Numbered from the stretch's first letter, positions 31,418-53,561 are shown. The stretch: DNA of 64,000 nt from a virus (IMGVR_UViG_3300020046_006452:21296-85295), one strand, 5' to 3'. Program-made: numbers and translations. Notes: generated by a model from the letters alone, not told the origin.

Positions 31418-31585
31418 GTTATGAACCGCTCCGCTTGTTGCGTTTGCGGAAGTTGACTCGGTCCCTCCACTCCTGGAAGTAGATTGCCGGAATGGCGATG
31501 GCTAGTATTATGACGTACATGGTGCCGAACGCGAGGATGACTGATATGATTGCAGTGAGTGCCTTGATCAGGATAGTTTCCCACA
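31418..31585 (-). CDS. small membrane protein (55 aa; below the ORF-track cutoff)
   Basis: MWETILIKALTAIISVILAFGTMYVIILAIAIPAIYFQEWRDRVNFRKRNKRSGS; ATG 6 nt after upstream stop. Confidence 0.35.
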
Positions 31586-31588
31586 TGC

Positions 31589-32044
31589 TTAGCAGCTTTT
31601 AGCACATTCAGGACCAAGGCGGCTATCGATCGAGGAAGGCACTGTCAGCACCTTACCACATCGAGCGCAGGTAGTTGCCCACATCACCTCGAACCCCTTG
31701 GCAGTGATCGCATCGTGCTGATCACGCAGCAGATTGAGTAGTGCCCACTCCGCAGCGCGGAACTCCACGCTAGTTGTGGCGAACTTACTCTTGGCAGTTG
31801 CCCGCAGGGGCTGGGCTGTACTACCCAGCATCCCGAGGTAGGTGTAGTGACGGGTGTTATCAGGACCGGTCAACACCCCCACTGCATACTGCGCAGCAGG
31901 CGGGGTTTGAAAGGGTCCACCATAACGCCCGGGCATTACGTGGGGCTTGAGCTTGGCCACCTGGAAGGACCACCTGCGACCCTTTGCACCATCGACCAAT
32001 GTGAACCGTGCCTTTCCGGCCTTGAGGATCTCGCTGTGTTTCAT
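31589..32044 (-). CDS. hypothetical early protein with C-terminal zinc ribbon
   Basis: 151 aa; CARCGK..GPEC; own promoter cassette. Confidence 0.45.
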   Translation of the reverse strand: MKHSEILKAGKARFTLVDGAKGRRWSFQVAKLKPHVMPGRYGGPFQTPPAAQYAVGVLTGPDNTRHYTYLGMLGSTAQPLRATAKSKFATTSVEFRAAEWALLNLLRDQHDAITAKGFEVMWATTCARCGKVLTVPSSIDSRLGPECAKSC

Positions 32045-32190
32045 GAAGGCAAAGATCCCCCAACTACAACTAAAGTCAACACCAATTTTCCTCTACTCTT
32101 GGAAGCCTACGGATAAACACCTGAGCCCCAGGAGGATATGTAACCCCCTGAGGCTCAGTCACTTAGTTAACTCGCTGAGGCTCAGCTAGA
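32045..32190 (-). promoter_or_regulatory. early promoter/operator cassette (leaderless; -7 box abuts ATG) with two CTGAGGCTCAG palindromes
   Basis: minus strand: ...TGTTG-N19-GATCTTTGCCTTC-ATG; palindromes at about 32147-32165 and 32173-32190. Confidence 0.5.
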
Positions 32191-32646
32191 TCAGGCCTCC
32201 TGCGCAGGACTCTCCACTTCACTGGTGGCCACTTCGGCTTCCACTTCAGGGGTAGCTTTCGCCTTCTTTGGCGCCTTTGGGGTCTTCACCTTGGCAGCCA
32301 CTGGGGTCTTGGGGACCTTCACCTTGGCGACCTTGACAGGCACCACCTTGGCAGGCTTCTCCGGCAGCTTACCGGTCTCCGCCAGTGCCTTCAAGATCTC
32401 GGCAGTCTCCGCCTTGGAGATCCGCTGCCACTTGGACTCCAGGGTCTCCTTGATCAGGTTGAAGCCGGCCACGTACGCATTGCGCAAGGTCGGGTAGACG
32501 ATCATCTTGCTCAGGTCCTCGACCTCACCCTCGGGGGCTTGGGCATTGAGGGCACGGATTACAGGGTCCTTGCGCTTGGCGCCCATCGCTTGGCAGATGT
32601 TGACGATGCAAGGGTAGGTCAGGGAGGTGTTGTTCTTGGTACTCAT
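32191..32646 (-). CDS. histone H1-like / AKP-repeat basic DNA-binding protein
   Basis: C-terminus KPAKVVPVKVAKVKVPKTPVAAKVKTPKAPKKAKATPE; own promoter with 80-nt leader. Confidence 0.45.
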   Translation of the reverse strand: MSTKNNTSLTYPCIVNICQAMGAKRKDPVIRALNAQAPEGEVEDLSKMIVYPTLRNAYVAGFNLIKETLESKWQRISKAETAEILKALAETGKLPEKPAKVVPVKVAKVKVPKTPVAAKVKTPKAPKKAKATPEVEAEVATSEVESPAQEA

Positions 32647-32763
32647 GGTCTTGTCTTGTTGTTTGTTGTTTTGCTAGCTCCTTAAAGGCTGAGCAGCGTT
32701 TGCCTATGGTTTGTTTGTGTTGAATCAAATATACGCCAACTTTCTCAAGCAGGCAACAGTAAG

Positions 32764-33072
32764 TTATGAACCGATCCGGGTGATCACGATATCGATGTTG
32801 GTAGTGTGGTAGAACCCCGAGGTGTAGACTTTCCACTTCAGTTGATAGCCAGCCACACGCAAGCCCTGGGCGATTCGGTCTTCGAGGTTGAACAGTACGG
32901 AGGCCTTCACCCCCCGGTAGACCCCCCAGAACTTCAGCCTGCGGCCATTAGCGCGGGGTTCGGAGAACGTGCGGTATTCCCCCAGTGATCCATTGCTACG
33001 AAGCTCGATCGCGATGTTGCGCATGATCTTGATCTCCTGCTTATACAGGGGGCAGTCCTTGTTGTGTTTCAT
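32764..33072 (-). CDS. hypothetical early protein
   Basis: 102 aa with own promoter cassette. Confidence 0.4.
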   Translation of the reverse strand: MKHNKDCPLYKQEIKIMRNIAIELRSNGSLGEYRTFSEPRANGRRLKFWGVYRGVKASVLFNLEDRIAQGLRVAGYQLKWKVYTSGFYHTTNIDIVITRIGS

Positions 33073-33165
33073 GAAGGCAAAGATACGGTGTTTTGGCGTT
33101 GAGGCAACAGTTCCAAGGTGAAAAAGTTATGAACCGGTGCTAACTCCCTCAGGCCCAGTGGGTTG
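33073..33165 (-). promoter_or_regulatory. early promoter cassette: GGTTCATAAC, TGTTG-N19-TATCTTTGCCTTC directly abutting ATG, plus degenerate palindrome
   Basis: GCACCGGTTCATAACTTTTTCACCTTGGAACTGTTGCCTCAACGCCAAAACACCGTATCTTTGCCTTCATG. Confidence 0.55.
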
Positions 33166-33399
33166 CATGTAATACGTTGAGTTCCAGTGAGTTCGGGTGT
33201 AGTGCAGGAACTTGGGCACTTTGGCGTTGTCATAGAACGGATCTACCCCCTGGCGCCTCATCTCGCGCGCCAATTGTGGGTGCTCCACCACAAGGGTGTT
33301 CCAAAGGTGCTGTCCCCAGCGGATTCCCTGGCGTTCATAGTGGTCCTTCCAGGTGCAATACGCGGAGGTGAGCCATTGATGTCGTGTTATAGTAGGCAT
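33127..33399 (-). CDS. hypothetical early protein
   Basis: 90 aa. Confidence 0.4.
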   Translation of the reverse strand: MPTITRHQWLTSAYCTWKDHYERQGIRWGQHLWNTLVVEHPQLAREMRRQGVDPFYDNAKVPKFLHYTRTHWNSTYYMQPTGPEGVSTGS

Positions 33400-33404
33400 G
33401 TTGT

Positions 33405-33644
33405 TCAGCAGGTTTCAGGGTGGGGGAACGAACAGAAGTCGCCGTTGGTGCGGGTTACCTGGGCAAGGTACCACTCTCCCCCCTCTTCTTGCTCAACTTT
33501 GGGGACCATAGCCTCGCCTATGTTGCGCAGGCTACGCAGGTCACCATCTTCACACCGCAGCACTCGGGTACGGCCATCGTAGACATTGCGGTACTTGAGG
33601 GTGGAGGGGTACATCGGTTCGGTTTGCAGTTGTGGGCTTATCAT
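33405..33644 (-). CDS. hypothetical protein
   Basis: 79 aa. Confidence 0.35.
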   Translation of the reverse strand: MISPQLQTEPMYPSTLKYRNVYDGRTRVLRCEDGDLRSLRNIGEAMVPKVEQEEGGEWYLAQVTRTNGDFCSFPHPETC

Positions 33645-33647
33645 GTG

Positions 33648-33884
33648 TTACTGGGGGAGTTTGTGTCCTTGATTTGCAGCCGCTTCAAAGGCTGAGTGTA
33701 TGTGCAGGTTGTCAAACAGGTCAGGCTTCTTGCACTGATCGAGGGTCTTAAGCAGGCGTTGGATCAGCTGGGCGTCCTTCTCACGCTCCGTTTCATACAG
33801 GTCGCGCAGTTCGGAAAGGCTCCAAGCGTAGCCCTGCATTTCGGCAAGCCGATCATCGCTGCAAAGGAGGTTAAGGGTGGCCAT
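33648..33884 (-). CDS. hypothetical early protein
   Basis: 78 aa; promoter box 25 nt upstream. Confidence 0.4.
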   Translation of the reverse strand: MATLNLLCSDDRLAEMQGYAWSLSELRDLYETEREKDAQLIQRLLKTLDQCKKPDLFDNLHIHSAFEAAANQGHKLPQ

Positions 33885-34084
33885 GGGATCTCGTTGTGTT
33901 TGTATAAGGCAAAGATACGGTGCTATAGACTAAAGTCAACACCCAAAGTTCGGCATTCGTGGAATCCTAGCTGTAACTTGCTGAGACTGAGGGGGAAAGT
34001 TTTTTCTCTCTGATTGCCAGGCAGTTACGTAGTTGCCCTGAGGATCAGGGGTTTAGCTGTAACTCCCTGAGGCTCAGCACTTAA
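33885..34084 (-). promoter_or_regulatory. early promoter cassette with three CTGAG-N-CTCAG-type palindromes
   Basis: TATCTTTGCC box at about 33897-33915; palindromes about 34002-34012, 34035-34050, 34060-34078. Confidence 0.45.
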
Positions 34085-40715: not shown

Positions 40716-41170
40716 GCTCTGAAGCTCTTAGGTACGAACTTAGCAGTAACGTCCTGGATCTCAATAGGCTCTGGGATGTACTCCACCTTGATGCTCTCCA
40801 ATACTCGGGTAAAGAAGTCACCACCAGTCAGTCCTAGGTCGTAGGCATACTCCAGGTAGACGTCAATATCGCTATCCACATCCTCAAAGACCTCATGTAG
40901 GTCGGAGGATAGAGGAGAGTGCTTGGCAACTACCCTCTTGATAGCTTTATTTAGCCCCTCGATCTCTTGGTCAGATGGCTCATATAAGTTGCCGAACCCC
41001 TCGTCCTTGCCGTTCACGCTCCCAAACAGCAGGGCAAAGTCAACAGTGAACTTAGCGTCTTGTTCACTCAGCCCCTCGATGGTCTCGGTCCTGGAGTTAT
41101 CACCGTCATTCTCCCAGGAGTCTACAGTAATGCGATAGCCTGCTGGTATGATTGTTGCTTTAGTCTTCAT
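40712..41170 (-). CDS. hypothetical acidic protein
   Basis: 152 aa. Confidence 0.4.
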   Translation of the reverse strand: MKTKATIIPAGYRITVDSWENDGDNSRTETIEGLSEQDAKFTVDFALLFGSVNGKDEGFGNLYEPSDQEIEGLNKAIKRVVAKHSPLSSDLHEVFEDVDSDIDVYLEYAYDLGLTGGDFFTRVLESIKVEYIPEPIEIQDVTAKFVPKSFRA

Positions 41171-41454
41171 CGTTCTTTGTTGGGTCTTATCACTTGATCT
41201 GTCAGTAACTGGCGGACCTGCTTTTTCTCGTACTCGAGGTGGTTAAGCAGGATGTCAATGCTTTGTTGAATTCGAGCAGGCTCTCCCTTGAGCACCTCAA
41301 TCAATATCTCGTTACCAGTCAGCTTGGCCATACTGGTCAGGGTCTTAACCATAACCTCAGCTTGGTGCAAGGTAGCTAGTACATTATCAATATCACCTTT
41401 AGTCAGTGCCATCTTGCTGTCGCTTATGCTTGTTGCGGTTGTACTTCTTGGCAT
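41167..41454 (-). CDS. hypothetical protein
   Basis: 95 aa. Confidence 0.4.
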   Translation of the reverse strand: MPRSTTATSISDSKMALTKGDIDNVLATLHQAEVMVKTLTSMAKLTGNEILIEVLKGEPARIQQSIDILLNHLEYEKKQVRQLLTDQVIRPNKER

Positions 41455-41669
41455 CTCCGTGGCTCTTTTGAATCATCTTGCGTCGGATGATCTGAGATAC
41501 GTGCCTTGGTGACAACCCCCTGAGTGGATCCTCGCCTTGAGGAGTCTCGTTGGATGAGATGTTGGAAGTATTGCTGTTCATTGTAGTTGAAGTCTAGGTC
41601 ATCATTGAAGTACTGACCCTCTCGCTCAATCCAGTCTAGGAATTGAGCACTCTCCTTGATGTAGCTCAC
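41424..41669 (-). CDS. hypothetical protein
   Basis: 81 aa; N-terminal half protein-like. Confidence 0.3.
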   Translation of the reverse strand: MSYIKESAQFLDWIEREGQYFNDDLDFNYNEQQYFQHLIQRDSSRRGSTQGVVTKARISDHPTQDDSKEPRRCQEVQPQQA

Positions 41670-41947
41670 GAGGCCTTTGTGTTGGTGGTACGCCAGGCCA
41701 TAACAGCAGCAGCATACTGCTCGATGCTATCTGAACTCCAGTTAGGGGGGTACACAGTGGTCACTTTGATTGGAGGCTTACCAACCAACTTGCAAAATGG
41801 TTTCAGTCGGTACAGTACGTTGGTCAAGTCTTTCATGTTGCTTGTTTTGAAGCTAGTCAAATATAAGCTGAGTATTGTGCGCTGAGCAACAGGCTGTTCA
41901 AAACTTCTCGATGCTTGGCACTGCACCACCGTTGTCATACTGGACAC
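41666..41947 (-). CDS. hypothetical protein
   Basis: 93 aa. Confidence 0.35.
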   Translation of the reverse strand: MSSMTTVVQCQASRSFEQPVAQRTILSLYLTSFKTSNMKDLTNVLYRLKPFCKLVGKPPIKVTTVYPPNWSSDSIEQYAAAVMAWRTTNTKAS

Positions 41948-42305
41948 ACTCCTTACCCTTGGAGGTCAGGAACACCATCTCCTTACCTTGCTCATTCTCG
42001 ATAGTGTTAACTAACCCTTTGTCAATCAGACTCTGCAGTGCAGACTCCATTACACATCGTCGTATAGCATCCTCAGCCTCTTCTTGGTTTACGTTTAACT
42101 CTCCAGTAGAGCACCACTTGTCAAATAAGATCTTGCCAAACACCTTTCGGACTGTGGGGCTATCGGTATCGGGGATGTCTACATAGAAGTTGGTATCTTG
42201 AAGTTCTTGCTCCAACTCATCCAATGCTTGTTCTACTTCTTGTGGGTACATGGTGGTGCTATTTGATTTGGTTTTGTTGAGTGAAATGGTCGGGGGTCGG
42301 GTCAC
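41898..42305 (-). CDS. hypothetical protein
   Basis: 135 aa. Confidence 0.4.
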   Translation of the reverse strand: MTRPPTISLNKTKSNSTTMYPQEVEQALDELEQELQDTNFYVDIPDTDSPTVRKVFGKILFDKWCSTGELNVNQEEAEDAIRRCVMESALQSLIDKGLVNTIENEQGKEMVFLTSKGKECVQYDNGGAVPSIEKF

Positions 42306-42381
42306 TTGGTGGCGGCGTTCAACTCATTGCAAACCGCATTGCGCTCCACCGTGTACGGCCCTACTGCGGTTGTCTCGTTGC

Positions 42382-42993
42382 TCATGGCCTGGGTGTGAGT
42401 TGTTCGATGAGCTTCAGTGCTGCGCCGTAGCGGGCCACCTCTTCCCGTGTGTAGCCTTCCATGCGCCCGACCGCTTCGTATTTGTCCAGCCATCCGGCAA
42501 GCGTGTTGACGTGGCAACCGATGGAGATCACATCGTTGTCGGCCTTGGTGATCGTGTGCTTGCCAAGGCATATCGTCCAAGGGGTGCGTTCAACCCGCGC
42601 ATCCCCGGACACCCGCGCATTCCCGGACACCAGCGCATTCCCGGACACCTGCGCATCCCCGTACACCTGCGCATTCCCGTACACCCGCGCATTCCCGGAC
42701 ACCCGCGCATCCCCGTACACCTGCGCATCCCCGTACACCCGCGCATTCCCGGACACCAGCGCATTCCCGGACACCAGCGCATTCCCGGACACCCGCGCAT
42801 CCCCGTACACCTGCGCATTCCCGTACACCTGCGCATTCCCGTACACCCGCGCATTCCCGGACACTAGTCCTTCGATGCGGGCTGTTTTGTCTACCCTGTC
42901 TGGGTGTTGGACCCATCCGCCACCGTTGGCGTGTTGGAAAAGCTCCGTGTCCTTCATCCACGGGTATTTGGCATTGAGTTCTTCGCGTGTCAT
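42382..42993 (-). CDS. hexapeptide-repeat (left-handed beta-helix-like) protein, about 15 x [G-N/D-A-R/Q/L-V-Y/S]
   Basis: repeat block encoded by near-perfect 18-bp tandem DNA repeats at 42590-42860; unique N- and C-terminal segments; ATG at 42993 (MTREEL) gives ATGA overlap with upstream stop. Confidence 0.55.
42590..42860. repeat. about 15 tandem copies of an 18-bp repeat GCGCAT(T/C)CCCG(G/T)ACACC(C/A/T) (plus-strand reading)
   Basis: near-perfect periodicity of 18 bp; encodes the hexapeptide repeats on the minus strand; explains the open frames on both strands. Confidence 0.7.
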
Positions 42994-43298
42994 GTTGTTG
43001 GTGTGATATTGTGCTTGGTGGCTGCGAGGGAGAGGGCGGCATCGCCATCTATGTATGGGCATTCGTCATAAGTCCTTGCGTATGCACAGGCGCCATCCAG
43101 CGCATCCACCAGCGCCTGAACCGTCGCCCGCAGGCTCTCCAGTTCGGCGTGTGTGGTCTTGCGGTCGGCTTCGTACAGGTCGCGAACCATCACTGCCCCC
43201 GCCACATATCCATGTCCTTTGTCACGGATCAATGGACCGTAAAGGAATGCCTCGCCTATTGCGTCATCGCTCACCAGTAGCTCAAGTGTTGCGCTCAT
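42990..43298 (-). CDS. hypothetical protein
   Basis: 102 aa. Confidence 0.4.
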
Positions 43299-43344
43299 AG
43301 GTAGTGATCAAGATATTCGTAAGAGTCGGGAAGTACGTCGTAGC

Positions 43345-43617
43345 TCATTGGTGGTTAGGGTTACGTGTATTGGAGCAAACAGTACCACCCACCACAATCA
43401 AGGATGCCATATGGCCCTCCTCTGCAGTAGCGAACTTACGCACTAAGGTATGCTTATCGATGTGTTCATCCTCCACCCAAAAGATACCCTCTTGCTCCAA
43501 TTGCTCGGTGGTGGTCTCCAGAGCTAGATAAGTGTCCTGGATACTCCCAGCTACTGAAGTGATTGTCTTCTGAGTCCTCTCGTCGTACGAGATCAGGTTG
43601 AGTACTTCGCGGTCCAT
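43345..43617 (-). CDS. hypothetical protein
   Basis: 90 aa; TATCTTTGAC box about 30 nt upstream. Confidence 0.4.
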   Translation of the reverse strand: MDREVLNLISYDERTQKTITSVAGSIQDTYLALETTTEQLEQEGIFWVEDEHIDKHTLVRKFATAEEGHMASLIVVGGTVCSNTRNPNHQ

Positions 43618-43698
43618 TGTGTTGTTATGCTTTTGCTATTGAGTCAAAGATAAGGCATCGGTTGTGTACTTAGCAACACTAAGTTATGAACACTAATG

Positions 43699-43917
43699 CT
43701 AGCGGTACAGTACTACGAAGTCTCCAAACTCTCGATCAAACACCTCCACTAGGTGCTCGTAGTCCCCAGCTTGCATCTCCTCTATGATTGCCTTAGGGTC
43801 CTTGTCCAGTTGCTTAGCAAGCACCTGAGCGTAACCCATTAGAGCAAAAGCGTTGCCATCAGGTCCAGTGAGGTCAATCTCAATTGGTCCTTGGCGGGGT
43901 TGTTTGTTCTTGATCAT
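43699..43917 (-). CDS. hypothetical protein
   Basis: 72 aa. Confidence 0.4.
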   Translation of the reverse strand: MIKNKQPRQGPIEIDLTGPDGNAFALMGYAQVLAKQLDKDPKAIIEEMQAGDYEHLVEVFDREFGDFVVLYR

Positions 43918-44270
43918 TTGCTCAGGGCCTTTGCTTTGTTTACCTTGGGCTTTGGCATCTCCGAGATCAGCTTGTGATAGAACTGATCCTTACTTAGGGG
44001 TTGACCAAACCTACCAACATCATGGTAATGGCCCCACATATATTCAAAGTTGTCTTTGACTATCTCTTCACTGAGAAAGAGACACCCTGCGTACTGATAC
44101 ACCACTCCCAACTCCAGAGCCAATTGGACATCAAGAGCATTGTTCGTGGTTGGCTCAGGCTCAATATCTAAAGCTAGATCCGGTACCTGGTTTGAGACGT
44201 GTCCCTTGGCCAGGATACACTCCCGATTGAGGTTCAGTGCTACCTCAGCGATTTGCTGCTTTGTCATCAT
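43914..44270 (-). CDS. hypothetical protein
   Basis: start moved to MMTKQQ; the first 33 codons of the listed ORF overlie a tRNA-like element. Confidence 0.4.
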   Translation of the reverse strand: MMTKQQIAEVALNLNRECILAKGHVSNQVPDLALDIEPEPTTNNALDVQLALELGVVYQYAGCLFLSEEIVKDNFEYMWGHYHDVGRFGQPLSKDQFYHKLISEMPKPKVNKAKALSK

Positions 44271-44271
44271 G

Positions 44272-44367
44272 TGAACAAGGTAGGACTCGAACCTACACGC
44301 ACCCTGTGCTTCGCTACCCGAGCTTGCTTCCCTCGGACGATGTGGCTCCCAGTTACACCACTTGCTC
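44272..44367 (-). tRNA. tRNA-like element (about 96 nt) with canonical T-arm GTAGGTTCGAGTCCTAC and GAGCAAG/CTTGTTC acceptor; anticodon region does not fold canonically (9-nt loop)
   Basis: manual fold; acceptor and T-arm clear, D-arm GTGT/ACAT; possibly a type-II or degenerate tRNA. Confidence 0.3.
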
Positions 44368-44416
44368 ATAACGTTATTGACAAATATACAACTTTAACTG
44401 ACTACCTTGCAACCAC

Positions 44417-45142
44417 CTATAACAAGCTGAAGTTTTTACATTCGTCAAGAGAGCGAAGAAAGATTATGTTTGAGTAAGTTGACTTCAAGATCTCGATCTT
44501 ATGTAATTGATTGGCATATGCTGCTGGGTTCTTTGGATCTAGATACAAGTTGTGATCCTCCAAGTAAAAGTCAGGAAAGTAATTATGCTCCAGACCGCTC
44601 TTGTCAACCCACTTGAGTGGAGATGGTCTGCTCCACTTTATGCCCATTTCATCTAATCGGATAGCTAATGCATGCTCCCACGTACTGTCCAGCAACACTC
44701 CTTTGTACTCGATAATGTTTCTGCGAAGTCTTCTATGATCTGATCTCAGGGCCGCGTCGCGCATCCTTTCTATTGACTCAGACTTATGCTTCCTTCCCAG
44801 CTTGTAGCTGTAGTCCACATGAGCGTATTTGCCGTCCGCATGGGCCTTTTTTATAGCGCAACTTCGCTTTTCTATCACTTCCGGCTTCTTATAGGCTGCT
44901 CTACGGTGTGAAAGGAACTCCTCATACTCAACTCGTTTGGGATTTGATTTACACCACCTTGAGTGGTTCATTATCTCAGAGGAAGTAGACACACTCAAAC
45001 TCTTCCACGTAAGCTGACAGTGCTTACAACAGGTTGACTTCCCTCTAGTCAAAGGAGGTTGGCCTGTACAGCAGGCGAAATGCCTTTCGAGGTTGTTATT
45101 AGTGATACTAGCCTTACATCTATCGCACGTGGACTGTCTCAT
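44417..45142 (-). CDS. Zn-finger protein, possible homing endonuclease
   Basis: 241 aa; N-terminal Cys clusters; C-terminal TWEHALAIRLDEMGIKW...YFPDFYLEDHNLYLDPK nuclease-like; sits inside the tRNA region. Confidence 0.35.
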   Translation of the reverse strand: MRQSTCDRCKASITNNNLERHFACCTGQPPLTRGKSTCCKHCQLTWKSLSVSTSSEIMNHSRWCKSNPKRVEYEEFLSHRRAAYKKPEVIEKRSCAIKKAHADGKYAHVDYSYKLGRKHKSESIERMRDAALRSDHRRLRRNIIEYKGVLLDSTWEHALAIRLDEMGIKWSRPSPLKWVDKSGLEHNYFPDFYLEDHNLYLDPKNPAAYANQLHKIEILKSTYSNIIFLRSLDECKNFSLL

Positions 45143-45195
45143 TACCTTTTCTCATAAGTATGGTGAAGGGGATAAAACAGCGATGTTCGGTTTAG

Positions 45196-45268
45196 TAGTC
45201 CTGACAAGATTCGAACTTGTGACCTAGGTGTTAGAAGCACCTTGCTCTGTCCACTGAGCTACAGGACC
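45196..45268 (-). tRNA. tRNA-Arg(TCT): tRNA-Arg (anticodon TCT)
   Basis: GGTCCTG-TA-GCTCAGTGGACAGAGC-A-AGGTG/CTTCTAA/CACCT-AGGTC-ACAAGTTCGAATCTTGT-CAGGACT-A. Confidence 0.7.
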
Positions 45269-45697
45269 AATTTGGAGGACCATGCGCGGGAACGATCCGG
45301 CTGATTTTGTGCTGTCCACAGGGGCTACCTGCAACCTTTCACGAACCATCACCCATGTACTGCAATCTGCTTTTGCTTTTCGTCACGGACTAGCGAAGTC
45401 CATCTCGATCAGCACAGACGCCCACATTGTGAAAGGCCCAAAATACGAGAAGTGAGGTACTTGGTAGGCTGCACCTATATAGCACTATCTATCTCCTTCA
45501 ATGGGGAGCAGCGGCCACAGACCCTTTACCTAGTAGTACTTCGACTCAAGTACTCCACTTCTAACATCATCTAACAGTACTTAATGTGTTGGTGGTGGTC
45601 ATTCCGGGGACTCGGGGACACTAAGGCGTCCATTCCCTCCGATGTGTTTACCTATTGCCACACACCAACACACTAAATCAAAGAACACTACTACCTC

Positions 45698-46117
45698 TCA
45701 TTCGGTAGAGGAGTGTGGCTGACTTGCTGGGGCCGTCTTGTCCCAGCGCTGAAGGCGCCCACAGTACTTACTACCACACTCCTCCCACCTAACCACCGGC
45801 TTCTGCTCACCTATCGCCTGCGAGGGCTTCAGGTATCCGTGGTCGCGGGCGTAGCGCAGTCCGCGCTCAAAGAATGCGCGGGCCATGTCGATTGCGCCGT
45901 CTTGGTCAAGAGCAAGTCCGACATGGGAATCCGCAGGAATGCTGTCCATCGCGGCGCGTCCCACCTCCTCATCGCTCAACTCCATGCCCTGCGCCTCCTG
46001 TGCTTCGGCTTGGGCGATGCAGTCATCCACCAAGTTCATCACGTTAGGCGTGTCCGATTCCTCAGACATCAGTACATCGCGCAGGTCGCGCAGCCTTTGG
46101 CTCAGTGTGGTGCTCAT
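45698..46117 (-). CDS. hypothetical protein
   Basis: 139 aa. Confidence 0.4.
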   Translation of the reverse strand: MSTTLSQRLRDLRDVLMSEESDTPNVMNLVDDCIAQAEAQEAQGMELSDEEVGRAAMDSIPADSHVGLALDQDGAIDMARAFFERGLRYARDHGYLKPSQAIGEQKPVVRWEECGSKYCGRLQRWDKTAPASQPHSSTE

Positions 46118-46129
46118 CGCTGTTCGGGG

Positions 46130-46534
46130 TTAGGGGGTGGCGGGGCGGATGGCATCGCGCCAAGTCTTGATCGGAAACTCTCTGGAGTTGTCCCTGGTAC
46201 ACAGTCCGAACCTGAAATTAGAGCTTTTTATCCATGGAATGCCGTCGCGCAGTTCCAGCACCTTCGTTATGGAACCCAGTCCATCTTCGCGGGCGGCGAG
46301 ACCTCCTGTAATCACCACCCAATCCCCCACCTTCGGCACCCATGCCTCCGCTGGCGCTGATCGGGATTCGAGGGCGGTCAGGCGCTCATGCACAGGCTCT
46401 AACATCTTGCTCACGATGCGCCGGATACGCAGCTCCTCTTCTTCCATCGCAATCTTGCGCAGGTTCAATGCGCGTTCTCCCGCTGCCTTCGGGTTCGGCT
46501 TCTTCGTGGTCTTGGTGGCTGTCTTCTTGCTCAT
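46130..46534 (-). CDS. hypothetical basic protein
   Basis: 134 aa, K-rich N-terminus; long leader carrying promoter cassette. Confidence 0.4.
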   Translation of the reverse strand: MSKKTATKTTKKPNPKAAGERALNLRKIAMEEEELRIRRIVSKMLEPVHERLTALESRSAPAEAWVPKVGDWVVITGGLAAREDGLGSITKVLELRDGIPWIKSSNFRFGLCTRDNSREFPIKTWRDAIRPATP

Positions 46535-46860
46535 GGTCGGTTAAGAGTTGTTGTCGTGATGTTGGTACTCGGGCTTTCCAGGCTCTGGTCCTACTATCTA
46601 TCTTGCTTTTGATCTTCTCTTGCGATCGAGGCAAAGATAGGCTACTTTTGGTTTGTTTGCAACAGTGGTCTCGATAAGTTATGAACCGAGTTATGAACCG
46701 CTGTTGTTGTTGATTGCTTGTTGTTGCTTTTGACGAAGGCAAAGATACGGTGATCTGGCAGGCTGAGCAAACCCTTTTTGGGCTATTGTTGGAAGGCTAC
46801 CGCTAATCCCCTGAGCCTCAGAGAGTTAGCTAACTACCTAGGTATCAGCAAGTTAGCTAC
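46535..46860 (-). promoter_or_regulatory. double promoter cassette: two TATCTTTGCC boxes, tandem GTTATGAAC direct repeat, one CTGAGCCTCAG palindrome
   Basis: boxes about 46625-46640 and 46728-46746 (second lacks an adjacent ATG); GTTATGAACCGAGTTATGAACC at 46676-46699; palindrome about 46807-46822. Confidence 0.45.
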
Positions 46861-46863
46861 CTC

Positions 46864-46948
46864 AAAATCCCGGTTTTAAGCGACGATCTCCTCCTTGGTG
46901 GCACCTTGCCCCAGGCAGGAGGAGATCGTGCCGCAGATCCAGGATTTG
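46864..46948 (-). terminator. conserved stem-loop element, copy 3
   Basis: AAAATCCCGGTTTTAAG-CGACGATCTCCTCC...GGAGGAGATCGTGCC-GCAGATCCAGGATTT; 12-14-bp stem. Confidence 0.45.
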
Positions 46949-46957
46949 GCTATTGGC

Positions 46958-47443
46958 CTACTGGTTATCCAACTCGTCAAACGCGTCCACGAAGGCTTCA
47001 ACCTCAGCTCGTGGGATCCATCCAATAATGGAATGTCGACTATCATCAGATACTACCTGGACTCCAGTCTTAAATACTCGAAACTTATACCAATCCACGT
47101 GCTCACCATCCTTGCTAACCATTGTCTCGTCACTCAACCAGCCACCATTGGTCATCTGAGGTTCAATGAACTTAGGCTTGGGCGGGGTGTTGGTTTCGCG
47201 GAGGATCCGGAGTAGGTTCAACAGGCCAATGGCCCCCGCTGATCCAGATCCGCGGTGGGTCGGCCGAACCTCCACCAATCCTCCATGGGGTGCTACACTG
47301 ACGGTATAAGAGATGGCGTCTTCATCACATTGGTCGGAGATATTGAAGTTGCGGTCCTCGCATACTGCTTGGATAGCTGTGAGTACTGCCTTACCCTCAT
47401 CTCCAACGAAGAGGTGATAGTGTTTAGTTGATTCCTTCTTCAT
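46958..47443 (-). CDS. hypothetical protein
   Basis: 161 aa. Confidence 0.4.
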   Translation of the reverse strand: MKKESTKHYHLFVGDEGKAVLTAIQAVCEDRNFNISDQCDEDAISYTVSVAPHGGLVEVRPTHRGSGSAGAIGLLNLLRILRETNTPPKPKFIEPQMTNGGWLSDETMVSKDGEHVDWYKFRVFKTGVQVVSDDSRHSIIGWIPRAEVEAFVDAFDELDNQ

Positions 47444-47653
47444 TGTGTTGTGTTGTTTGATTTTAATGGGGGTTGAATTGAGCTGTTGCTTTGATTGAGA
47501 GTCGCTCAGACTTTCGGCTTTCTGGAGTGCAACCTACGTGCCTACGAGGTCCTGCACATCCAAATGTGATCAGGATGAGTAGGGCTACTGTAGCTACTCG
47601 GGTTAGTGTATTGGTCTTCATTGTTGTTGTGTTGTTTGGTTGTTATTGTTAAG

Positions 47654-47884
47654 TTATGCAACATGCTCGCTCTCGTATATGTGTTGCACTTCTTCACCTG
47701 TTAAATGGTATGGGTGTGTTCTATCGGGGTAATATTTCCACAAATAACCAACCCAACTATCGTTCATGTCTTGTAAGTTCTGTATGGGTAGTTCGTGCCA
47801 CCAATCTAAAGCACGTTGCATAACATCAGATATACCCAATTTGGGTGTTGTCTGTTTATCCCACTCTTGTTTTTCTTTACTCAT
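47654..47884 (-). CDS. hypothetical protein
   Basis: 76 aa. Confidence 0.35.
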   Translation of the reverse strand: MSKEKQEWDKQTTPKLGISDVMQRALDWWHELPIQNLQDMNDSWVGYLWKYYPDRTHPYHLTGEEVQHIYESEHVA

Positions 47885-47942
47885 TTTGTCTATAATTTAA
47901 AGTTTCTACTATTTAATCCCAAACTGGGCATATCTGTAACCG

Positions 47943-48272
47943 TTAAACGAAGTTCAAGTCGTTGACAACGATTACATCGAAGGTCATGTCTGCAGATCTC
48001 CAGTGCCAATCTAGAATGGCGGACTTGGGTGTTACTGTCTTCTTCAAAAACTGACACCACTTCACCGCCTTGGTTTTTGTACTTGCCAGTGCGATCACCT
48101 TTTCGCGGCATGGACCCTCCTGCATGATTCCCTCATTCTGAAGGGTTGATAGGTTGGTGCTGAAGGTCTTGGACTCAGGGTCCCACAGGAAGTGCCTAGT
48201 TGATAGGATCGTACTTTGGGCAGCTGTCTTACCAAAGCTGCGGCCACCTTGAGTTACAGTTAGCTTATCCAT
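47943..48272 (-). CDS. hypothetical protein
   Basis: 109 aa. Confidence 0.35.
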   Translation of the reverse strand: MDKLTVTQGGRSFGKTAAQSTILSTRHFLWDPESKTFSTNLSTLQNEGIMQEGPCREKVIALASTKTKAVKWCQFLKKTVTPKSAILDWHWRSADMTFDVIVVNDLNFV

Positions 48273-48387
48273 TTGATCACGGTGTGTATTAGTAACAGCA
48301 GAACAGTCAGCCCCAAAGACAGTAGGACAACGAGGTCCACTACTCGCTCAACTAGGCCTTCTGTTGGTTCTCGGCGTGTTGACATGC

Positions 48388-48654
48388 TTACAGTTTATGT
48401 TCGTTCTGGTCCAGGTACTCTATCTGGTCAACCAAGTCGTGATATTGAGCTAGAGTGATCACCTCTTTGAAGCTCTCTCCCTCCCATTTGATCTCAGCGA
48501 GTACACGGGTGACACGTTCTGTAGGATACCCATAAAACTTAGCATCCAAACACCCCAACAAGCAGATGATACCACCGTTAGGGACAAAGGACAGTACAGG
48601 ATGATCAGAGTCCCGGACTTCGTAGTTCTTGCTTTTCTTCTTCTTGTTTGGCAT
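48388..48654 (-). CDS. hypothetical protein
   Basis: 88 aa; TATATTTG box 4 nt upstream of ATG. Confidence 0.4.
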   Translation of the reverse strand: MPNKKKKSKNYEVRDSDHPVLSFVPNGGIICLLGCLDAKFYGYPTERVTRVLAEIKWEGESFKEVITLAQYHDLVDQIEYLDQNEHKL

Positions 48655-48758
48655 ATGTCAAATATAAGGCTGACTATGTGTACCATGCAACAACAAAGAG
48701 CCCCACCCGAAAGTGAGGCCCCATGTCTGTTTGAGAGTCCTACTCCCAACTGTAACGC

Positions 48759-49130
48759 TTACCAGCTATAGTTGCTGTAGTAGCTTGGCTTAGGAGCACT
48801 CTTGCTAGCAGCCTTCTTACCTTTCTTGGTGATCTCGTACTTGCCAGTAGCCACACGCTTCAGCTTGCCTTCGTTGGCAAGATACCTCATCGAGCGACCT
48901 ACTGAGAGGTTGAACTCAAAGTTGTCCATCTCAGTGGTGGGGATGCGCAGCCTTCGGCGAAGAACTGGATTGCTCACAGTGTCCTCTTTTGTAGCAGCAT
49001 TCAGGATACGCTCGGTCCACGGTTTACGATTACTCATACTTGTCTGTTTGTAACTTTGTTTGAAACTGTCAAACTTGCAGCTTCTCATCTTTGATGTGGG
49101 GTGAGAAGGTTTGCCCACTTTGTTGTTCAC
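48759..49130 (-). CDS. putative DNA-binding protein
   Basis: 123 aa, basic, helix-turn-helix-like region. Confidence 0.3.
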   Translation of the reverse strand: MNNKVGKPSHPTSKMRSCKFDSFKQSYKQTSMSNRKPWTERILNAATKEDTVSNPVLRRRLRIPTTEMDNFEFNLSVGRSMRYLANEGKLKRVATGKYEITKKGKKAASKSAPKPSYYSNYSW

Positions 49131-49167
49131 CTGGCCAGTGATTACATCTACAATATACGCCTTATCC

Positions 49168-49680
49168 TCACTTGAGGCAACAGCCTCTCACCATTAGGTG
49201 GATGTAGGGTTCAAAGTTATCAATGTTGTACATCACTGGAGTCCACATTATCATATAGAGGTGAGTATAGCCTAGCTCAGTTAGCTCAGCTTTAAGCTGA
49301 TCGTAATCAACTAGGTGAGGTCCACGATCTGCAGGGTTGTCATAATTGTACTGCATCTGTGTACGCAGCTTTTGAGTCTTGCTGCAAATAGCAATCTCCT
49401 CTCCCTTCCAGTTGACTAATGCACTAGGAAGCTCCATCACCTCAAACCCATCCGGTAGTGGTATTGTGTCTCTGGTGATGTTATCTGCATAGTCCTTTGT
49501 CCTCTCAAGTGCTGCAGCAAGGTTGTCCTTAGGCTTATCTACAGACCCACTCGCAGCAAGTAGCGAGGGGGCAACTGCTGCACCTACTAGCAGGGCACCG
49601 AGCTTACCTAGAAAAGATCTCCTTTCTCCGATGTTAGGTTCATCCTTATCGGATGACAGCATGTCCATTTGTGCACTCAT
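49168..49680 (-). CDS. Tat-signal secreted protein
   Basis: ERRSFLGKLGALLVGAAVAPSLLAASGS = twin-arginine motif (S/T)RRxFLK plus hydrophobic region. Confidence 0.45.
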   Translation of the reverse strand: MSAQMDMLSSDKDEPNIGERRSFLGKLGALLVGAAVAPSLLAASGSVDKPKDNLAAALERTKDYADNITRDTIPLPDGFEVMELPSALVNWKGEEIAICSKTQKLRTQMQYNYDNPADRGPHLVDYDQLKAELTELGYTHLYMIMWTPVMYNIDNFEPYIHLMVRGCCLK

Positions 49681-49698
49681 TTGATTGGGGTTTGTTAG

Positions 49699-50193
49699 TT
49701 ACTGAAAGCTGGTTTGGTAGTCACTCCATACTTGCTCTACATCAGGATCGAATAGCTTACCGAACACTGAGGGCTCATATGGCTTGTTAGTCAACCGCAT
49801 GTTAGCCTCTTCAGGAGTCCTGTCAGCCTTCTTCAAGTTGCAGCTGTAGCAGCAAGTGATTAGGTTGGTCCACGAGTTATCTCCACCTCGTGACTTAGGT
49901 AGAATGTGGTCAATAGTCAAGTGCCTAGTTGATCCGCAGTAGGTACAAGTGTGATGATCACGGTCGTAGATCCTCTTGCGGTTGACCTTCAACTTCTTCA
50001 TCATGAAGCGAACGTACTTCAGCAATCTAATGATCACTGGACGTACGTACTGCACTACCCCAGCAAGGATTGGACTGTCTTCAACAGACTTCAGTATCTC
50101 AGCCTTTCCTTTGTAAACCAACTTGAATCCGTGACGGACCGAGGTGACGTTCAATGGAGAGTAGTCTGAGTTTAGCACCAGTACTCTTTCCAT
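49699..50193 (-). CDS. HNH endonuclease
   Basis: HHTCTYCGSTRHLTIDHILPKSRGGDNSWTNLITCCYSCNLKK. Confidence 0.7.
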   Translation of the reverse strand: MERVLVLNSDYSPLNVTSVRHGFKLVYKGKAEILKSVEDSPILAGVVQYVRPVIIRLLKYVRFMMKKLKVNRKRIYDRDHHTCTYCGSTRHLTIDHILPKSRGGDNSWTNLITCCYSCNLKKADRTPEEANMRLTNKPYEPSVFGKLFDPDVEQVWSDYQTSFQ

Positions 50194-50211
50194 AATAGTA
50201 GCGGTTGATGG

Positions 50212-50544
50212 TTAGTTCTCCACCCAAACAGAGGAGCCAAGGATCATAGCCTCACCTGCAGACAGATGGGGGTACAGCTGCATGTAGTACAGAGCTCGGC
50301 ACACAACATCGGCTTGTGTTCCCAACGCAATACTGTTATCTAGTACGTCCTGAGCAACCTCACGATCGTAGGTGGTAGTTGCATTAGGCTGACGAGCTTG
50401 CCTCTGGCCATTGACTAGATCCTGAAACCAGGAACGTAGTTGAGCGATCTTGGTTGGAGGGTTAAGGCTTATAGTACTGTTGCTTTCCATACTGTAGTAA
50501 CTGTTTGATTGTGTTATCTGCGTTTCCTTGATGTAATATACCAA
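50212..50544 (-). CDS. hypothetical protein
   Basis: 110 aa; probable later start (MESNST). Confidence 0.3.
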   Translation of the reverse strand: MVYYIKETQITQSNSYYSMESNSTISLNPPTKIAQLRSWFQDLVNGQRQARQPNATTTYDREVAQDVLDNSIALGTQADVVCRALYYMQLYPHLSAGEAMILGSSVWVEN

Positions 50545-51121
50545 ATCCTCCCCGACTTTGCCACTGTGTTACGTTTTTATGGTAGTCGTCGATTAGGATC
50601 GCTGAGGGTGAGCTCAGTTGGGACTTATGCTCAGACCTCTTAAATACATAGGGCGGTGTGATTGGACCGAGGTGTTTTGTGATCCACTCTATCTTACCCT
50701 TACGGCCTGCAGTACCCTCATTAGGTGGAGCACTTAGGATGGTTGGGTTGTATAGCCTGACGTGATTCCAAATAGTTGGGCCTTCAGGTAGCCATGGCAT
50801 CTCACTCCAGAACTCTATAGGTGCATCGCTAAGCTGCTTGTGGAAGGCATCACTCCCGTGCTGCTTACGATAGGCTGAAGGGTCTAGTTGATAGTAGTCT
50901 ACCCACTGCTTAACGAAGTCTGCTAGCACTCCATCCAGGTCACAGTATACTTTGTGATCCTCCTGTATTGCTTGTATTGATCGAAGGTCATCCAGATCTC
51001 TACCACACTCACCACAAACACTTCCAGCTCGATCTAGATTACCATAATCTAAGTACCACATACAACCTAGACAAAAGTTACTGATGAGAGGGTTGCTGTA
51101 GTTAAGGAGAGGAGATTTCAT
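50462..51121 (-). CDS. 5'(3')-deoxyribonucleotidase-like HAD-superfamily hydrolase
   Basis: VYCDLDGVLADF (DxDGVLADF motif of the NT5C family), ILIDDY motif III. Confidence 0.55.
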   Translation of the reverse strand: MKSPLLNYSNPLISNFCLGCMWYLDYGNLDRAGSVCGECGRDLDDLRSIQAIQEDHKVYCDLDGVLADFVKQWVDYYQLDPSAYRKQHGSDAFHKQLSDAPIEFWSEMPWLPEGPTIWNHVRLYNPTILSAPPNEGTAGRKGKIEWITKHLGPITPPYVFKRSEHKSQLSSPSAILIDDYHKNVTQWQSRGGFGILHQGNADNTIKQLLQYGKQQYYKP

Positions 51122-51618
51122 AGGTCAAGGCTACCTGACATCAGGCGCTGCTTTTTGAAGATGTCCCCATTAGCCCAGTGCTCCACCAACCAACCCTCCT
51201 TGTCCATGTAGATCATAGGAAAGCCTTTGTCCCAAGTATCTTTCTTGACCTGTGCAGCGAAGTCTTTAGTGAATTGATCTGAACGCAGATATCCAGCTAG
51301 GGCATCCTCATCTAGATCTTCCTTCTGGTGTAGAGGTTTGATGGTCTGGTCTGGATGGCTCTTGATTCTATTAGCTGCCCATTGCATGTCCTGTTGGTCA
51401 GGAGGAGGATCAATACCCTTTAGTACGTGGATGTAAGCTACTAGGTAGTTGACTAGACCTAAGGTACCTGGAACCCCATAGGAGTCCCCGTCGACCCACT
51501 TATCGTTGAGCACCAAGCGAGCATACTCCTCCACCCTTTGATCGGTGTCACAAGTGTCTTCTAGCAAGTGCTTGTAGCTCTTGAAGTAGTCCTTGTTGGG
51601 GTCTTTAGTTATGGGCAT
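51118..51618 (-). CDS. hypothetical protein
   Basis: 166 aa. Confidence 0.4.
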   Translation of the reverse strand: MPITKDPNKDYFKSYKHLLEDTCDTDQRVEEYARLVLNDKWVDGDSYGVPGTLGLVNYLVAYIHVLKGIDPPPDQQDMQWAANRIKSHPDQTIKPLHQKEDLDEDALAGYLRSDQFTKDFAAQVKKDTWDKGFPMIYMDKEGWLVEHWANGDIFKKQRLMSGSLDL

Positions 51619-51772
51619 TTGGCAACTTGGATGTAGTGGCGGGTGGGGACATCTCTGTTACCAGTGTCCTCCCAGGTTATGATGTAGAACCTATAGCTCT
51701 CAGTATCGAAGTATACTTGGTTGTCGCGATCAGCGATCATTCCTTTTGGCAGTCCTTCCATGTTAGTTGTGA

Positions 51773-52267
51773 TTAAAATACTCCGTGTTCAATCCTACCA
51801 ATCTCCGCTAAGATCTCCTTCTCGTCCATGTCCATCACCCGAGTGTAGCTGCTGCCTAGTTTAGTCAGTCCCCACTTCATTGAGTGTAGTGTAGGTTGAC
51901 CGAGCCAAGTTAGAAGCTTCGTTGAATCTTCCCACAACCCCATGCCAGCCTCTTTAACTTTAGGATGGCTGTGCAACCATACAGCTGCATCTGCTTGATC
52001 GAACGTCTCCTTAAGCTTACCTAGATCATCTGGACTTATGATCATACCATCGTAGTCACCGAACCTAGGTCTCTTCCCTGCAATGTAGCCAAGAGCTCTC
52101 CAGATCCGTTGTAGCACGTTTTTGTGATTAGGTGGAGTCACATGCCACCATAGCTCTCCTTCCTCAGGATCGAACCAAAACGAGTAGACGTGTCCTAGAG
52201 ATTGGCACTCACATACGAATACTTGTTGCTTATCGTTTGTCATCACACTGAAGTTAGAGTTATCCAA
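51773..52267 (-). CDS. hypothetical protein
   Basis: 164 aa. Confidence 0.4.
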   Translation of the reverse strand: MDNSNFSVMTNDKQQVFVCECQSLGHVYSFWFDPEEGELWWHVTPPNHKNVLQRIWRALGYIAGKRPRFGDYDGMIISPDDLGKLKETFDQADAAVWLHSHPKVKEAGMGLWEDSTKLLTWLGQPTLHSMKWGLTKLGSSYTRVMDMDEKEILAEIGRIEHGVF

Positions 52268-52452
52268 GCAGCAGCTGTAGCTGCAACAACTAGGAGAGCA
52301 ATCACAATCACTACCCTACCAGCTAGTACAGTTAGCTTAGCTGAGTCTAGGTCGGCATCATCGGCTCGGCCCGTCTTTATTAGCACCACTATGGCAGCTA
52401 GTAAGATCAAGGCTATTAGTGCACCTACTACTATCCAACCAATGTTGATCAT
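52243..52452 (-). CDS. two-TM small membrane protein (holin-like topology)
   Basis: 69 aa. Confidence 0.35.
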   Translation of the reverse strand: MINIGWIVVGALIALILLAAIVVLIKTGRADDADLDSAKLTVLAGRVVIVIALLVVAATAAAWITLTSV

Positions 52453-52721
52453 TTCAACTCCTGTATTACAGAGAGGATGTCATCTAAGGCCTTACTAAGC
52501 AACTCAGCCTGGGACTCACTTATCTCACCAACAAGTTCCATACCCTCGAACAAAGCAGAGTGCTCAGTGAAGTGTGATGGTGAGTATAGATCATTAGTAG
52601 TGATCCAGTAGTCTGCTGCAGTACGAATGATCTCAGCGACCTCTATTTGAAGGGGGTTAGGCTTACGGCTTTGCATCTTCATATAGCTTTGATTTGATCC
52701 ACTACGTCTGACGGCACCCAC
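52449..52721 (-). CDS. hypothetical protein
   Basis: 90 aa. Confidence 0.35.
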   Translation of the reverse strand: MGAVRRSGSNQSYMKMQSRKPNPLQIEVAEIIRTAADYWITTNDLYSPSHFTEHSALFEGMELVGEISESQAELLSKALDDILSVIQELK

Positions 52722-53047
52722 CTCACAAAATCAGCTTGCTGTTCGATCTCCTTTAACCTCTCGATGACCGCGGTCCTAGACTCCTCAACCACTTGAGCGT
52801 ACTCCTCCTTAAGGTGATATATTTGTGAGGCCAGCTCCAAGTAAGATCCTGTTGGTCTAGCCTCGAAGCCAGGCCTGTCAACCAATCTGATATAGTCATC
52901 ATAATCCAGAGTGAACTTGCCAGGTTCGTAGGACCTCAAATCATTCCACTGCTCTAATGACATTGGAACGTACACCTCGTTGGGGTCCCTGTACTTTTTG
53001 GCCAGGTAAAAGACGATGCCAGTCTTAGGTAGTTTGCTGTTTGTCAT
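52679..53047 (-). CDS. hypothetical protein
   Basis: 122 aa. Confidence 0.35.
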   Translation of the reverse strand: MTNSKLPKTGIVFYLAKKYRDPNEVYVPMSLEQWNDLRSYEPGKFTLDYDDYIRLVDRPGFEARPTGSYLELASQIYHLKEEYAQVVEESRTAVIERLKEIEQQADFVRWVPSDVVDQIKAI

Positions 53048-53561
53048 TGTCGAGTAGTTTATTGCCTTTGTGTATGAACTGCCTACCTCCTACACAGGAT
53101 AGGGGTACCACCTTAGTCATCGCAGCGATGGAACCAATCTCACTCCTATTATTATCTAGGTGCCACACAAAGTCATGACCGAACTGTTGAAACCAGTAAG
53201 CTTTGATCTGCCCATTAGTGAACACAATCCGATCTCTTGGGATCCCTAGTACATCAGCCATAGGGTATAGGTCCTCGTTATTAGTCCAGATCTGGTGATC
53301 ACCCCACGTCTCAGCAAACTCTTCAGGAGTGCATCGAGCTCGGAAGAATGCTTCGGGGTCCTTAGGTCTAGATGTCACTATCCACACCTCAACATCAGGG
53401 CGCAGTAGGAGCTGCTTGCAGTAGTCTTGCACTATGGCAAGATCCTTCAGACAGTCGTCAAAGTCGAAGCTAACTTTCTTAACCATAGATGAACTTGCTA
53501 TAGGGTATGTGCCTAGAACCGTGAACCCAACCAGCGAACTCCTCTGCTGAGTGAAGATCAA
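53025..53561 (-). CDS. possible HAD-like phosphatase
   Basis: VSFDFDDCL (DxD-type motif I) and VWIVTSRP (motif II-like); weak. Confidence 0.3.
   Translation of the reverse strand: MIFTQQRSSLVGFTVLGTYPIASSSMVKKVSFDFDDCLKDLAIVQDYCKQLLLRPDVEVWIVTSRPKDPEAFFRARCTPEEFAETWGDHQIWTNNEDLYPMADVLGIPRDRIVFTNGQIKAYWFQQFGHDFVWHLDNNRSEIGSIAAMTKVVPLSCVGGRQFIHKGNKLLDNDKQQTT

Follow-up and report, generated by a model that had tools for sequence, protein, structure and literature searches.

Within a 64,000-nt window of a viral sequence (IMGVR_UViG_3300020046_006452:21296-85295; "the window" denotes this whole stretch, and positions count from its first letter), the minus strand carries at 42382–42993 a real, intact gene of 203 amino acids (aa) whose middle consists of 15 in-frame 18-bp units, and these units undergo concerted evolution while remaining persistently polymorphic at three codon positions. 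On balance, we lean towards reading its product as a small cytoplasmic, non-virion protein made of an N-terminal segment, a rod of 15 rungs and a Gly-Cys domain, with a hypervariable array, a horizontal origin and an early role in host interaction. The gene belongs to a catalogued family of unknown function (Pfam PF18836; PHROG 7964/5070): its protein matched PHROG 7964 over residues 27–198 (2.7e-37) and PHROG 5070 over residues 22–137 (5.9e-35), and over 6,900 proteins in the database align with it in this minus-strand frame. The gene itself is ordinary; the evolutionary signature that runs through its family is the interesting part.

Tandem Repeats Finder reported a period of 18, 15.1 copies, 91% matches and a score of 404 at 42593–42864, by far the strongest tandem repeat of the window. 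Scanning with the degenerate pattern GTGTMCGGGRATGCGCNG recovered exactly 15 adjoining zero-mismatch matches on the minus strand and no other copy in 64 kb, against a chance expectation of 0.23 matches and with 15 reached in 0 of 100 shuffles; this count is that of the assembly, and two independent contigs from related strains both break inside the array. The run is uninterrupted and made from just six unit types, with the codons GTG-T[C/A]C-GGG-[A/G]AT-GCG-C[G/A/T]G, i.e., V-[S/Y]-G-[N/D]-A-[R/Q/L]. A preliminary description of this DNA had given the plus-strand unit (GCGCATyCCCGkACACCn) correctly and had counted about 15 near-identical copies, in agreement with both scans; the peptide it proposed, [G-N/D-A-R/Q/L-V-Y/S]n, is the same hexapeptide in a shifted register. 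It had further remarked on spurious frames, and open reading frames (ORFs) of 205, 181, 108 and 152 aa do cross the array in four other frames, all of them by-products of the repeat. The start codon is the ATG at 42993, the methionine used by the closest orthologues, and for this reason the gene is delimited to the 203-aa frame; a longer ORF reaching up to 43062 was rejected as the gene start because its extension is not conserved.

Variation among the 15 units is confined to three nucleotide positions (GTG-TxC-GGG-xAT-GCG-CxG), each of them amino-acid-changing, with zero synonymous variation. Orthologues use different codons yet keep them uniform within each gene (GTC/GGC/GCA in locus L004, GTG/GGC/GCA in L001). 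Across 82 family genes comprising 1,446 units, from phages of 30–68% guanine-cytosine (GC) content, within-gene entropy was 0.05–0.13 bit at third codon positions and 0.83–1.01 bit at four nonsynonymous positions, while the preferred codon varied widely between genes. Codons at unit position 2 were almost all T-N-C (Tyr 849, Ser 481, Phe 77, Cys 25, all others 11) and hardly ever encoded Thr, Ala or His, and those at position 4 were mainly R-A-T. Under the hexapeptide model of left-handed beta-helices, the aliphatic residue at i and the small residue at i+4 point inwards; by this rule, the three polymorphic codon positions would face outward.

Arrays also differ in length and content on flanks that are nearly or wholly identical. 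Over the 351 nt of coding sequence that flank the array, no nucleotide differs between loci L092 and L093, which hold 12 versus 5 units; L094 and L095, with flanks 98% identical, hold 12 versus 4. The flanks of the first pair are 96–97% nucleotide-identical to those of the second despite a wholly different array unit, V-[E/G/T]-G-[S/F]-A-[R/T/I] (GTG-GAA-GGC-TCC-GCG-AGA; positions 34–600 of L092 and 59–499 of L093); on this comparison, the whole array, usually built from V-Y-G-N-A-Q, was evidently replaced on an almost unchanged gene. Among five cultured Vibrio breoganii phages whose 500-nt flanks are 98–100% identical, the gene spans 603, 768, 776, 783 and 804 nt, and the in-frame stops in 1.139.B and the frameshift inside the array of 1.209.O are either real pseudogenes or assembly errors. 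Two further contigs come from strain-level relatives of the window phage. The first (L100, run SRR20000430; 96.6% identical over 40927–42649) matches the window exactly in 42200–42592 but shows 7 differences within the array's final 58 nt (Fisher p = 0.003). In the second (L101, run SRR20000429; 98.7% identical over 42792–44948), the 129-nt N-terminal part is unchanged, against 13 differences in 72 nt of array (Fisher p = 5e-13); as both contigs end within the array, this comparison covers sequence content, with unit number outside it. Measured arrays ranged from 3 to 42 units across the family, with three in a 134-aa orthologue (P0006), and no preference for whole turns, i.e., multiples of three, was seen among them (counts 27, 26, 32; p = 0.69). 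That unit number changes faster than point substitution is well supported by these alignments. The preliminary description had likewise suspected recent or ongoing change in unit number, and the synonymous homogeneity, the 12 versus 5 units on identical flanks and the strain differences inside the array extend this to unit content as well.

The array's repeat type was recognized from its protein sequence. Pfam PF18836 (B_solenoid_ydck) matched in 10 stretches with 86 bits against a gathering cut-off of 30 (E 4e-25), and the sole solved relative by sequence was YdcK (PDB 2f9c, 8.9e-11), matches that uphold the hexapeptide beta-solenoid periodicity proposed earlier. We infer a YdcK-type hexapeptide beta-solenoid of ~5 turns, provided that three units make a turn. 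AlphaFold2, run with a 38-sequence alignment, returned predicted local distance difference test (pLDDT) values of ~80 for the N-terminus and 84–94 for the C-terminus; over the array it drew regular four-residue strands at six-residue spacing, but with low confidence (pLDDT 36–52), so the solenoid assignment is taken from sequence-family evidence and not from the model. A Foldseek search of the full-length model, whose array is of low confidence, gave no meaningful match in the PDB. The unique N- and C-terminal flanks named in the preliminary description are present and conserved in orthologues. The N-terminal segment ends in a conserved H-x-NGGGW motif that leads into the first rung, with the G in NGGGW invariant among orthologues. 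The protein lacks a hydrophobic N-terminus, a signal peptide and a membrane segment; taken whole it is near neutral (isoelectric point, pI, 7.8), with a basic repeat region (pI 9.2).

Modelled alone with its own alignment, the C-terminal domain reached a pLDDT of 88.9 and a predicted template modelling score of 0.77, with four beta-strands followed by two helices. Gly159-Cys160 was present in 236 of 236 sequences (the Cys160 codon lies at 42514–42516), Tyr189 in 95% and Trp168 in 82%. A Pfam scan of the N- and C-terminal segments together with 31 sequences of the domain gave no match, and a profile search of the domain against the PDB gave no significant one. Its profile found 2,725 representatives at 50% identity among 1.84 billion clusters; among the 150 representatives listed, nearly all have the domain at or close to their C-terminus, and among the 20 fetched, nearly all have a solenoid before it. 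Individual proteins combine these parts in other ways: in P0140 the two terminal domains are the same but enclose five-residue repeats, GGVI[RW]; P0148 has what, as judged by eye, looks like a helix-turn-helix-type extension after the C-terminal domain; and in P0160 the domain is joined to a long N-terminal region in which, by eye, intein and homing-endonuclease-like motifs seem to be present.

Base composition, the extent of similarity and distribution among strains point to a single gene gained horizontally, before the three strains diverged, from phages of ~57% GC. The non-repeat part of the gene has 57% GC and a third-position GC fraction (GC3) of 0.67, in a window of 48% GC where most neighbours have GC3 of 0.47–0.59. 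Its closest true orthologues, which are metagenomic and 63–74% identical over the full length, sit on contigs of 56–59% GC; nucleotide similarity to them (75–81%) extends from ~10 nt before the ATG to just before the stop; and the gene occurs in both related strains. No neighbouring gene is conserved across 88 family loci, which argues in the same direction, and an IMG/VR search for relatives of the gene's two neighbours found none. Megablast of 41800–43700 against 50,697 phage records gave no match, an exact 25-mer from the C-terminal domain was absent from JGI metagenomes and IMG/VR, and an exact-sequence look-up of the 203-aa protein in the contig collection returned nothing; the window is that of a large phage without a close sequenced relative.

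The setting of family members was judged in eight annotated or Pfam-marked phage contexts. In Streptococcus phage Sfi19 the gene lies downstream of AcrIIA6, with cro on one side and the Gam / Sak4 / helicase genes on the other; in Mycobacterium phage Boilgate, beside an HNH endonuclease gene and directly upstream of primase/polymerase; in Liberibacter phage SC1, in an operon diverging from the repressor; in Streptococcus phage Javan246, between excisionase and replication genes; and in an Edwardsiella Kafunavirus, within 3.6 kb of the genome start. Small genes of unknown function surround it in Vibrio phages and in Bacillus phage phiAGATE, and the closest metagenomic orthologues stand upstream of DnaB / NinG, or of ERF / YqaJ / SSB. 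The annotated phages inspected showed no tail-gene neighbours, the positions being always early, replication, recombination or small-gene regions. In the window, the gene is surrounded by small genes without annotation, with the structural region on one side and a transfer RNA (tRNA) gene cluster on the other. Because this setting is non-structural, an early cytoplasmic role is favoured and a fibre or adhesin disfavoured. Across the family as a whole, the hosts of the phages span Firmicutes, Proteobacteria, Actinobacteria, Bacteroidetes and Fusobacteria, and the gene's position is always non-structural.

Taken as a mechanism, the reading we favour would run as follows. In-frame gain, loss and exchange of 18-bp units by replication slippage or unequal recombination would keep the units near-identical, and the length of the rod would thereby shift faster than point mutations build up. 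The array would fold as a triangular beta-helix rod, of ~5 turns here and of ~1 to 14 in the family, on which the outward positions would form ladders of Tyr/Ser, Asn/Asp and Arg/Gln/Leu(/Trp) in a mosaic that keeps shifting; an activity or an anchor would come from the constant C-terminal domain, with the variable rod as the surface under an arms race. Since nearly any rod length, and any rotational offset between the two ends, is tolerated, a precise enzyme active site is disfavoured, and a spacer or a periodic, evolvable binding surface fits this tolerance better. An early-expressed host-interaction factor serving takeover or counter-defence is, in our estimate, possible rather than probable; binding to nucleic acid or another periodic polymer, or a bactofilin-like assembly, are the alternative roles. 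Bolder still, and in our judgement unlikely, is a diversification device free of reverse transcriptase, in which recombination and slippage of units would reshuffle both the exposed residues (Tyr/Ser/Phe/Cys, Asn/Asp, Arg/Gln/Trp/Leu) and rod length in an early phage protein that binds or evades host immunity proteins which themselves evolve fast. The beta-helix would then serve as a combinatorial binding surface, with the invariant Gly-Cys domain performing a constant activity.

Several points weigh against the small, early-acting cytoplasmic protein we favour. The array has no confident AlphaFold2 model, and its handedness, oligomeric state and exposed residues would follow from the hexapeptide rule. 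Copy numbers from short-read metagenomes may be assembly errors, given that the strain contigs break in the array and two Vibrio records are frame-defective. A mutational bias specific to that site would explain the restriction of position 2 to T-N-C no less well than selection at the protein level. The grounds for a counter-defence or takeover role are gene position and evolutionary tempo, and a search of an incomplete library for literature on YdcK with phage, PF18836, Sfi19 orf229 and related topics found no paper on function.

Among other explanations, the likeliest is a bactofilin-like, polymer-forming cytoskeletal protein, whose cores would stack into filaments that scaffold a step of infection or disturb host shape or division. 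Bactofilins share the triangular beta-helix with ~18-residue windings, Pfam Bactofilin PF04519 scored marginally above its cut-off (32 bits versus 27.9, residues 34–119), NCBI names several relatives 'polymer-forming cytoskeletal protein', and in temperate phages the family gene is found where cell-division inhibitors, lambda Kil for example, are encoded. However, the YdcK-repeat model fits far better at 86 bits, the sequence match to bactofilin 6ria reached just E = 0.16, conserved folded segments at both ends of the solenoid would block end-to-end stacking, and perfect hexapeptide repeats in a family range of 3 to 42 units contrast with a fixed core; we regard this account as quite improbable. 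Still less credence goes to the variable-length fibre or adhesin that the preliminary description had put forward, or to any other variable-length structural virion protein. Its support consists of weak local matches to large tail and baseplate PHROGs (E 1.5e-4 to 0.05), limited to the repeats, and a putative tail fibre chain (9cuy, E = 0.5), while the top-scoring PHROGs consist of small proteins of unknown function. A protein of 203 aa that lacks a hydrophobic N-terminus, a signal peptide, a membrane segment and a conserved neighbour, and whose relatives never adjoin tail genes or form part of a tail module in the annotated phages inspected, does not suit that part, and the suggestion is not supported.

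That the DNA repeat is itself the functional element, as origin iterons, a protein-binding array or an array resembling CRISPR, with the ORF incidental, would accord with the likeness of 15 near-identical 18-bp direct repeats to iteron arrays and with the annotation of the repeats in Vibrio phage homologues as CRISPR spacers. We consider it most improbable: the V-x-G-x-A-x pattern and both terminal domains are kept across thousands of homologues and the frame is open in all intact members, whereas the nucleotides of the unit vary (GTG/GGG/GCG here, GTC/GGC/GCA in L004, GTG-GAA-GGC-TCC-GCG-AGA in L092), and in Liberibacter phage SC1 the origin is annotated at another place. Targeted hypermutation resembling that of diversity-generating retroelements could write to three codon positions, and the proteins such elements vary likewise are phage products with variation at few codon positions on a constant scaffold; restriction to few nucleotide positions, and changes of TAC to TNC and CAG to CNG, would suit adenine-directed mutagenesis. 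Here, though, the variation lies among tandem units and is accompanied by changing array length, the 64-kb window contains no second copy of the unit as a template repeat, neither the AAT/GAT nor the CGG/TGG changes show adenine specificity, no variation falls on the second A of AAT, changes of the types A/G, C/A, G/A/T and C/T occur among the variable sites, and the gene travels alone without a conserved neighbour, which together leave this mechanism barely plausible. An equally faint prospect is the left-handed beta-helix acyltransferase implied by the GenBank labels 'putative acyltransferase' and 'trimeric LpxA-like'. Weak PDB and NCBIfam matches to LpxA, LpxD and GlmU (E 4e-4 to 0.4) accord with it, but Pfam Hexapep PF00132 gave 10.4 bits versus a cut-off of 27 (E 0.59), the uninterrupted perfect repeat has no inserted loops or catalytic residues, and the tolerance of 3 to 42 units is unlike a defined active site between trimer subunits.

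Comparison with described systems separates what is shared from what is particular to this protein. YdcK of Salmonella and E. coli (PDB 2f9c, 2pig) has the same repeat type, but in a ~330-aa bacterial protein whose rungs are irregular and which has neither a DNA-level tandem repeat nor a C-terminal Gly-Cys domain; the YdcK equivalog (NCBIfam NF040481) was rejected at 40.4 bits versus a cut-off of 350, the repeats alone matching. Members of PHROG 7964/5070 (e.g., Streptococcus phage Sfi19 orf229, Mycobacterium phage Boilgate gp64, Vibrio phage 1.139.A gp58) share the solenoid core, the non-structural genome position and the DNA-level repeat homogeneity, and those matching over their full length share the C-terminal domain; they differ in being just 35–57% identical, mainly within the repeats. 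Pentapeptide-repeat proteins, both those of the Qnr and MfpA type and phage ones, are likewise beta-solenoids of very short tandem repeats, and some from phages appear to end in a fold like that of the C-terminal domain (weak Foldseek matches, E 0.13–0.85, query-normalised TM-score 0.44–0.68). DNA-mimic pentapeptide proteins have an acidic surface. Here the period is six, and neither the repeat nor the whole protein is acidic by its pI, so a pentapeptide DNA mimic of the Qnr / MfpA kind was rejected.

NeuO, the phase-variable polysialate O-acetyltransferase of prophage CUS-3, is a hexapeptide-repeat protein whose gene has a variable-number tandem repeat (PMC3046976). The likeness consists in this pairing of a prophage-encoded hexapeptide-repeat protein with a variable tandem repeat in its gene, whereas NeuO is an enzyme and the window repeat is 18 bp long, in frame and the beta-helix itself. 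The variable repeat of NeuO, a heptanucleotide, lies outside the beta-helix and turns the reading frame on and off. A simple-sequence contingency (phase-variable) locus was rejected for the window gene because the unit comprises six codons, so that gain or loss stays in frame. The PADLOC defence-system models gave no match to the gene. Liberibacter hyvI/hyvII, also considered as a family homologue, are the autotransporters LasAI/II (PMC3708911) and were set aside; the actual homologue there is SC1 gp24, with an 18/72-bp repeat.

The layout of the gene and its upstream neighbour is given in Table 1. The ATGA shared by the two suggests, from sequence, translational coupling. The upstream ORF showed no Pfam or PHROG match above threshold and had no homologue beside any of the 88 family loci, its sole database relative being the same gene in a related strain; it is a neighbour without a conserved partnership with the family. 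The downstream neighbour (41898–42305, minus strand, 135 aa), 97% identical in the related strain L100, has weak winged-helix or regulator-like matches (PHROG 11046, 2.4e-4; Pfam winged-helix models, 0.002–0.14).

Table 1 Layout of the repeat-containing gene and its upstream neighbour in the window
Feature	Coordinates	Strand	Description and basis
Complete gene	42382..42993	-	203 codons + TGA stop at 42382-42384
N-terminal segment, aa 1-43	42865..42993	-	Conserved among orthologues
Array, 15 in-frame 18-bp units, aa 44-133	42595..42864	-	Tandem Repeats Finder, pattern scan, Pfam PF18836
C-terminal domain, aa 134-203	42385..42594	-	AlphaFold2 domain model, conservation
ATGA overlap of gene start codon and upstream ORF stop codon	42990..42993	-	Sequence and ORF coordinates
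Upstream ORF, 102 aa, GC 0.57, overlapping the gene start	42990..43298	-	ORF list, GC values

Elsewhere in the window, a second GC-rich island (45698–46534, minus strand) holds adjoining ORFs of 139 and 134 aa (GC 0.58–0.60, GC3 0.70) without a PHROG match, probably another horizontally acquired pair. Between two tRNA genes, and 1.4 kb from the acquired gene, a 241-aa ORF (44417–45142, minus strand) matched phage endonuclease PHROGs (best endonuclease match 2.4e-9) and looks like a homing-type endonuclease. The minus strand carries 19 tRNA genes in 44271–63879, most of them clustered between 55 and 64 kb; among these, tRNA-Pro(ggg) at 44271–44367 is predicted at 97 nt and overlaps the ORF at 43914–44369; this could be an intron-containing gene or a mistaken prediction. 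GC is raised at 27001–34000 (0.51–0.56 versus 0.45–0.48 elsewhere), a region that includes a 423-aa AAA-type ATPase ORF (30109–31380). No PHROG match was obtained for most of the large, presumed structural ORFs at 338–15423 (805, 978, 981 and 549 aa), and a search with a 424-aa protein of the tail region reached a single distant phage record.

Database records of the family carry a variety of labels. In Sfi19 (L005), orf129 (3942–4331) is annotated inside the family member orf229 (3851–4540) and is almost certainly a spurious alternative-frame ORF made by the repeat. Homologues in Javan prophages are labelled 'glycerol kinase', one in an Aeromonas phage 'MFS-type transporter', and others acyltransferase, while the GenBank records of Vibrio phages 1.139.A, 1.139.B, 1.034.X, 1.034.O and 1.209.O (L007, L096–L099) label the hexapeptide-repeat DNA 'CRISPR spacers'. 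A correct description of the family would clean up many records that carry such wrong labels or that list the repeats as CRISPR arrays or overlapping ORFs. The evolutionary pattern appears not to have been described before, as no paper describing the repeat dynamics of the family was found in the same incomplete library. Synonymous homogeneity, three polymorphic codon positions and length change between otherwise identical phages together make up the kind of signature seen in arms-race proteins. Should the array prove to be the diversification device outlined above, the thousands of proteins in the family would make up a major class, so far unrecognised, that serves phages in counter-defence or takeover.

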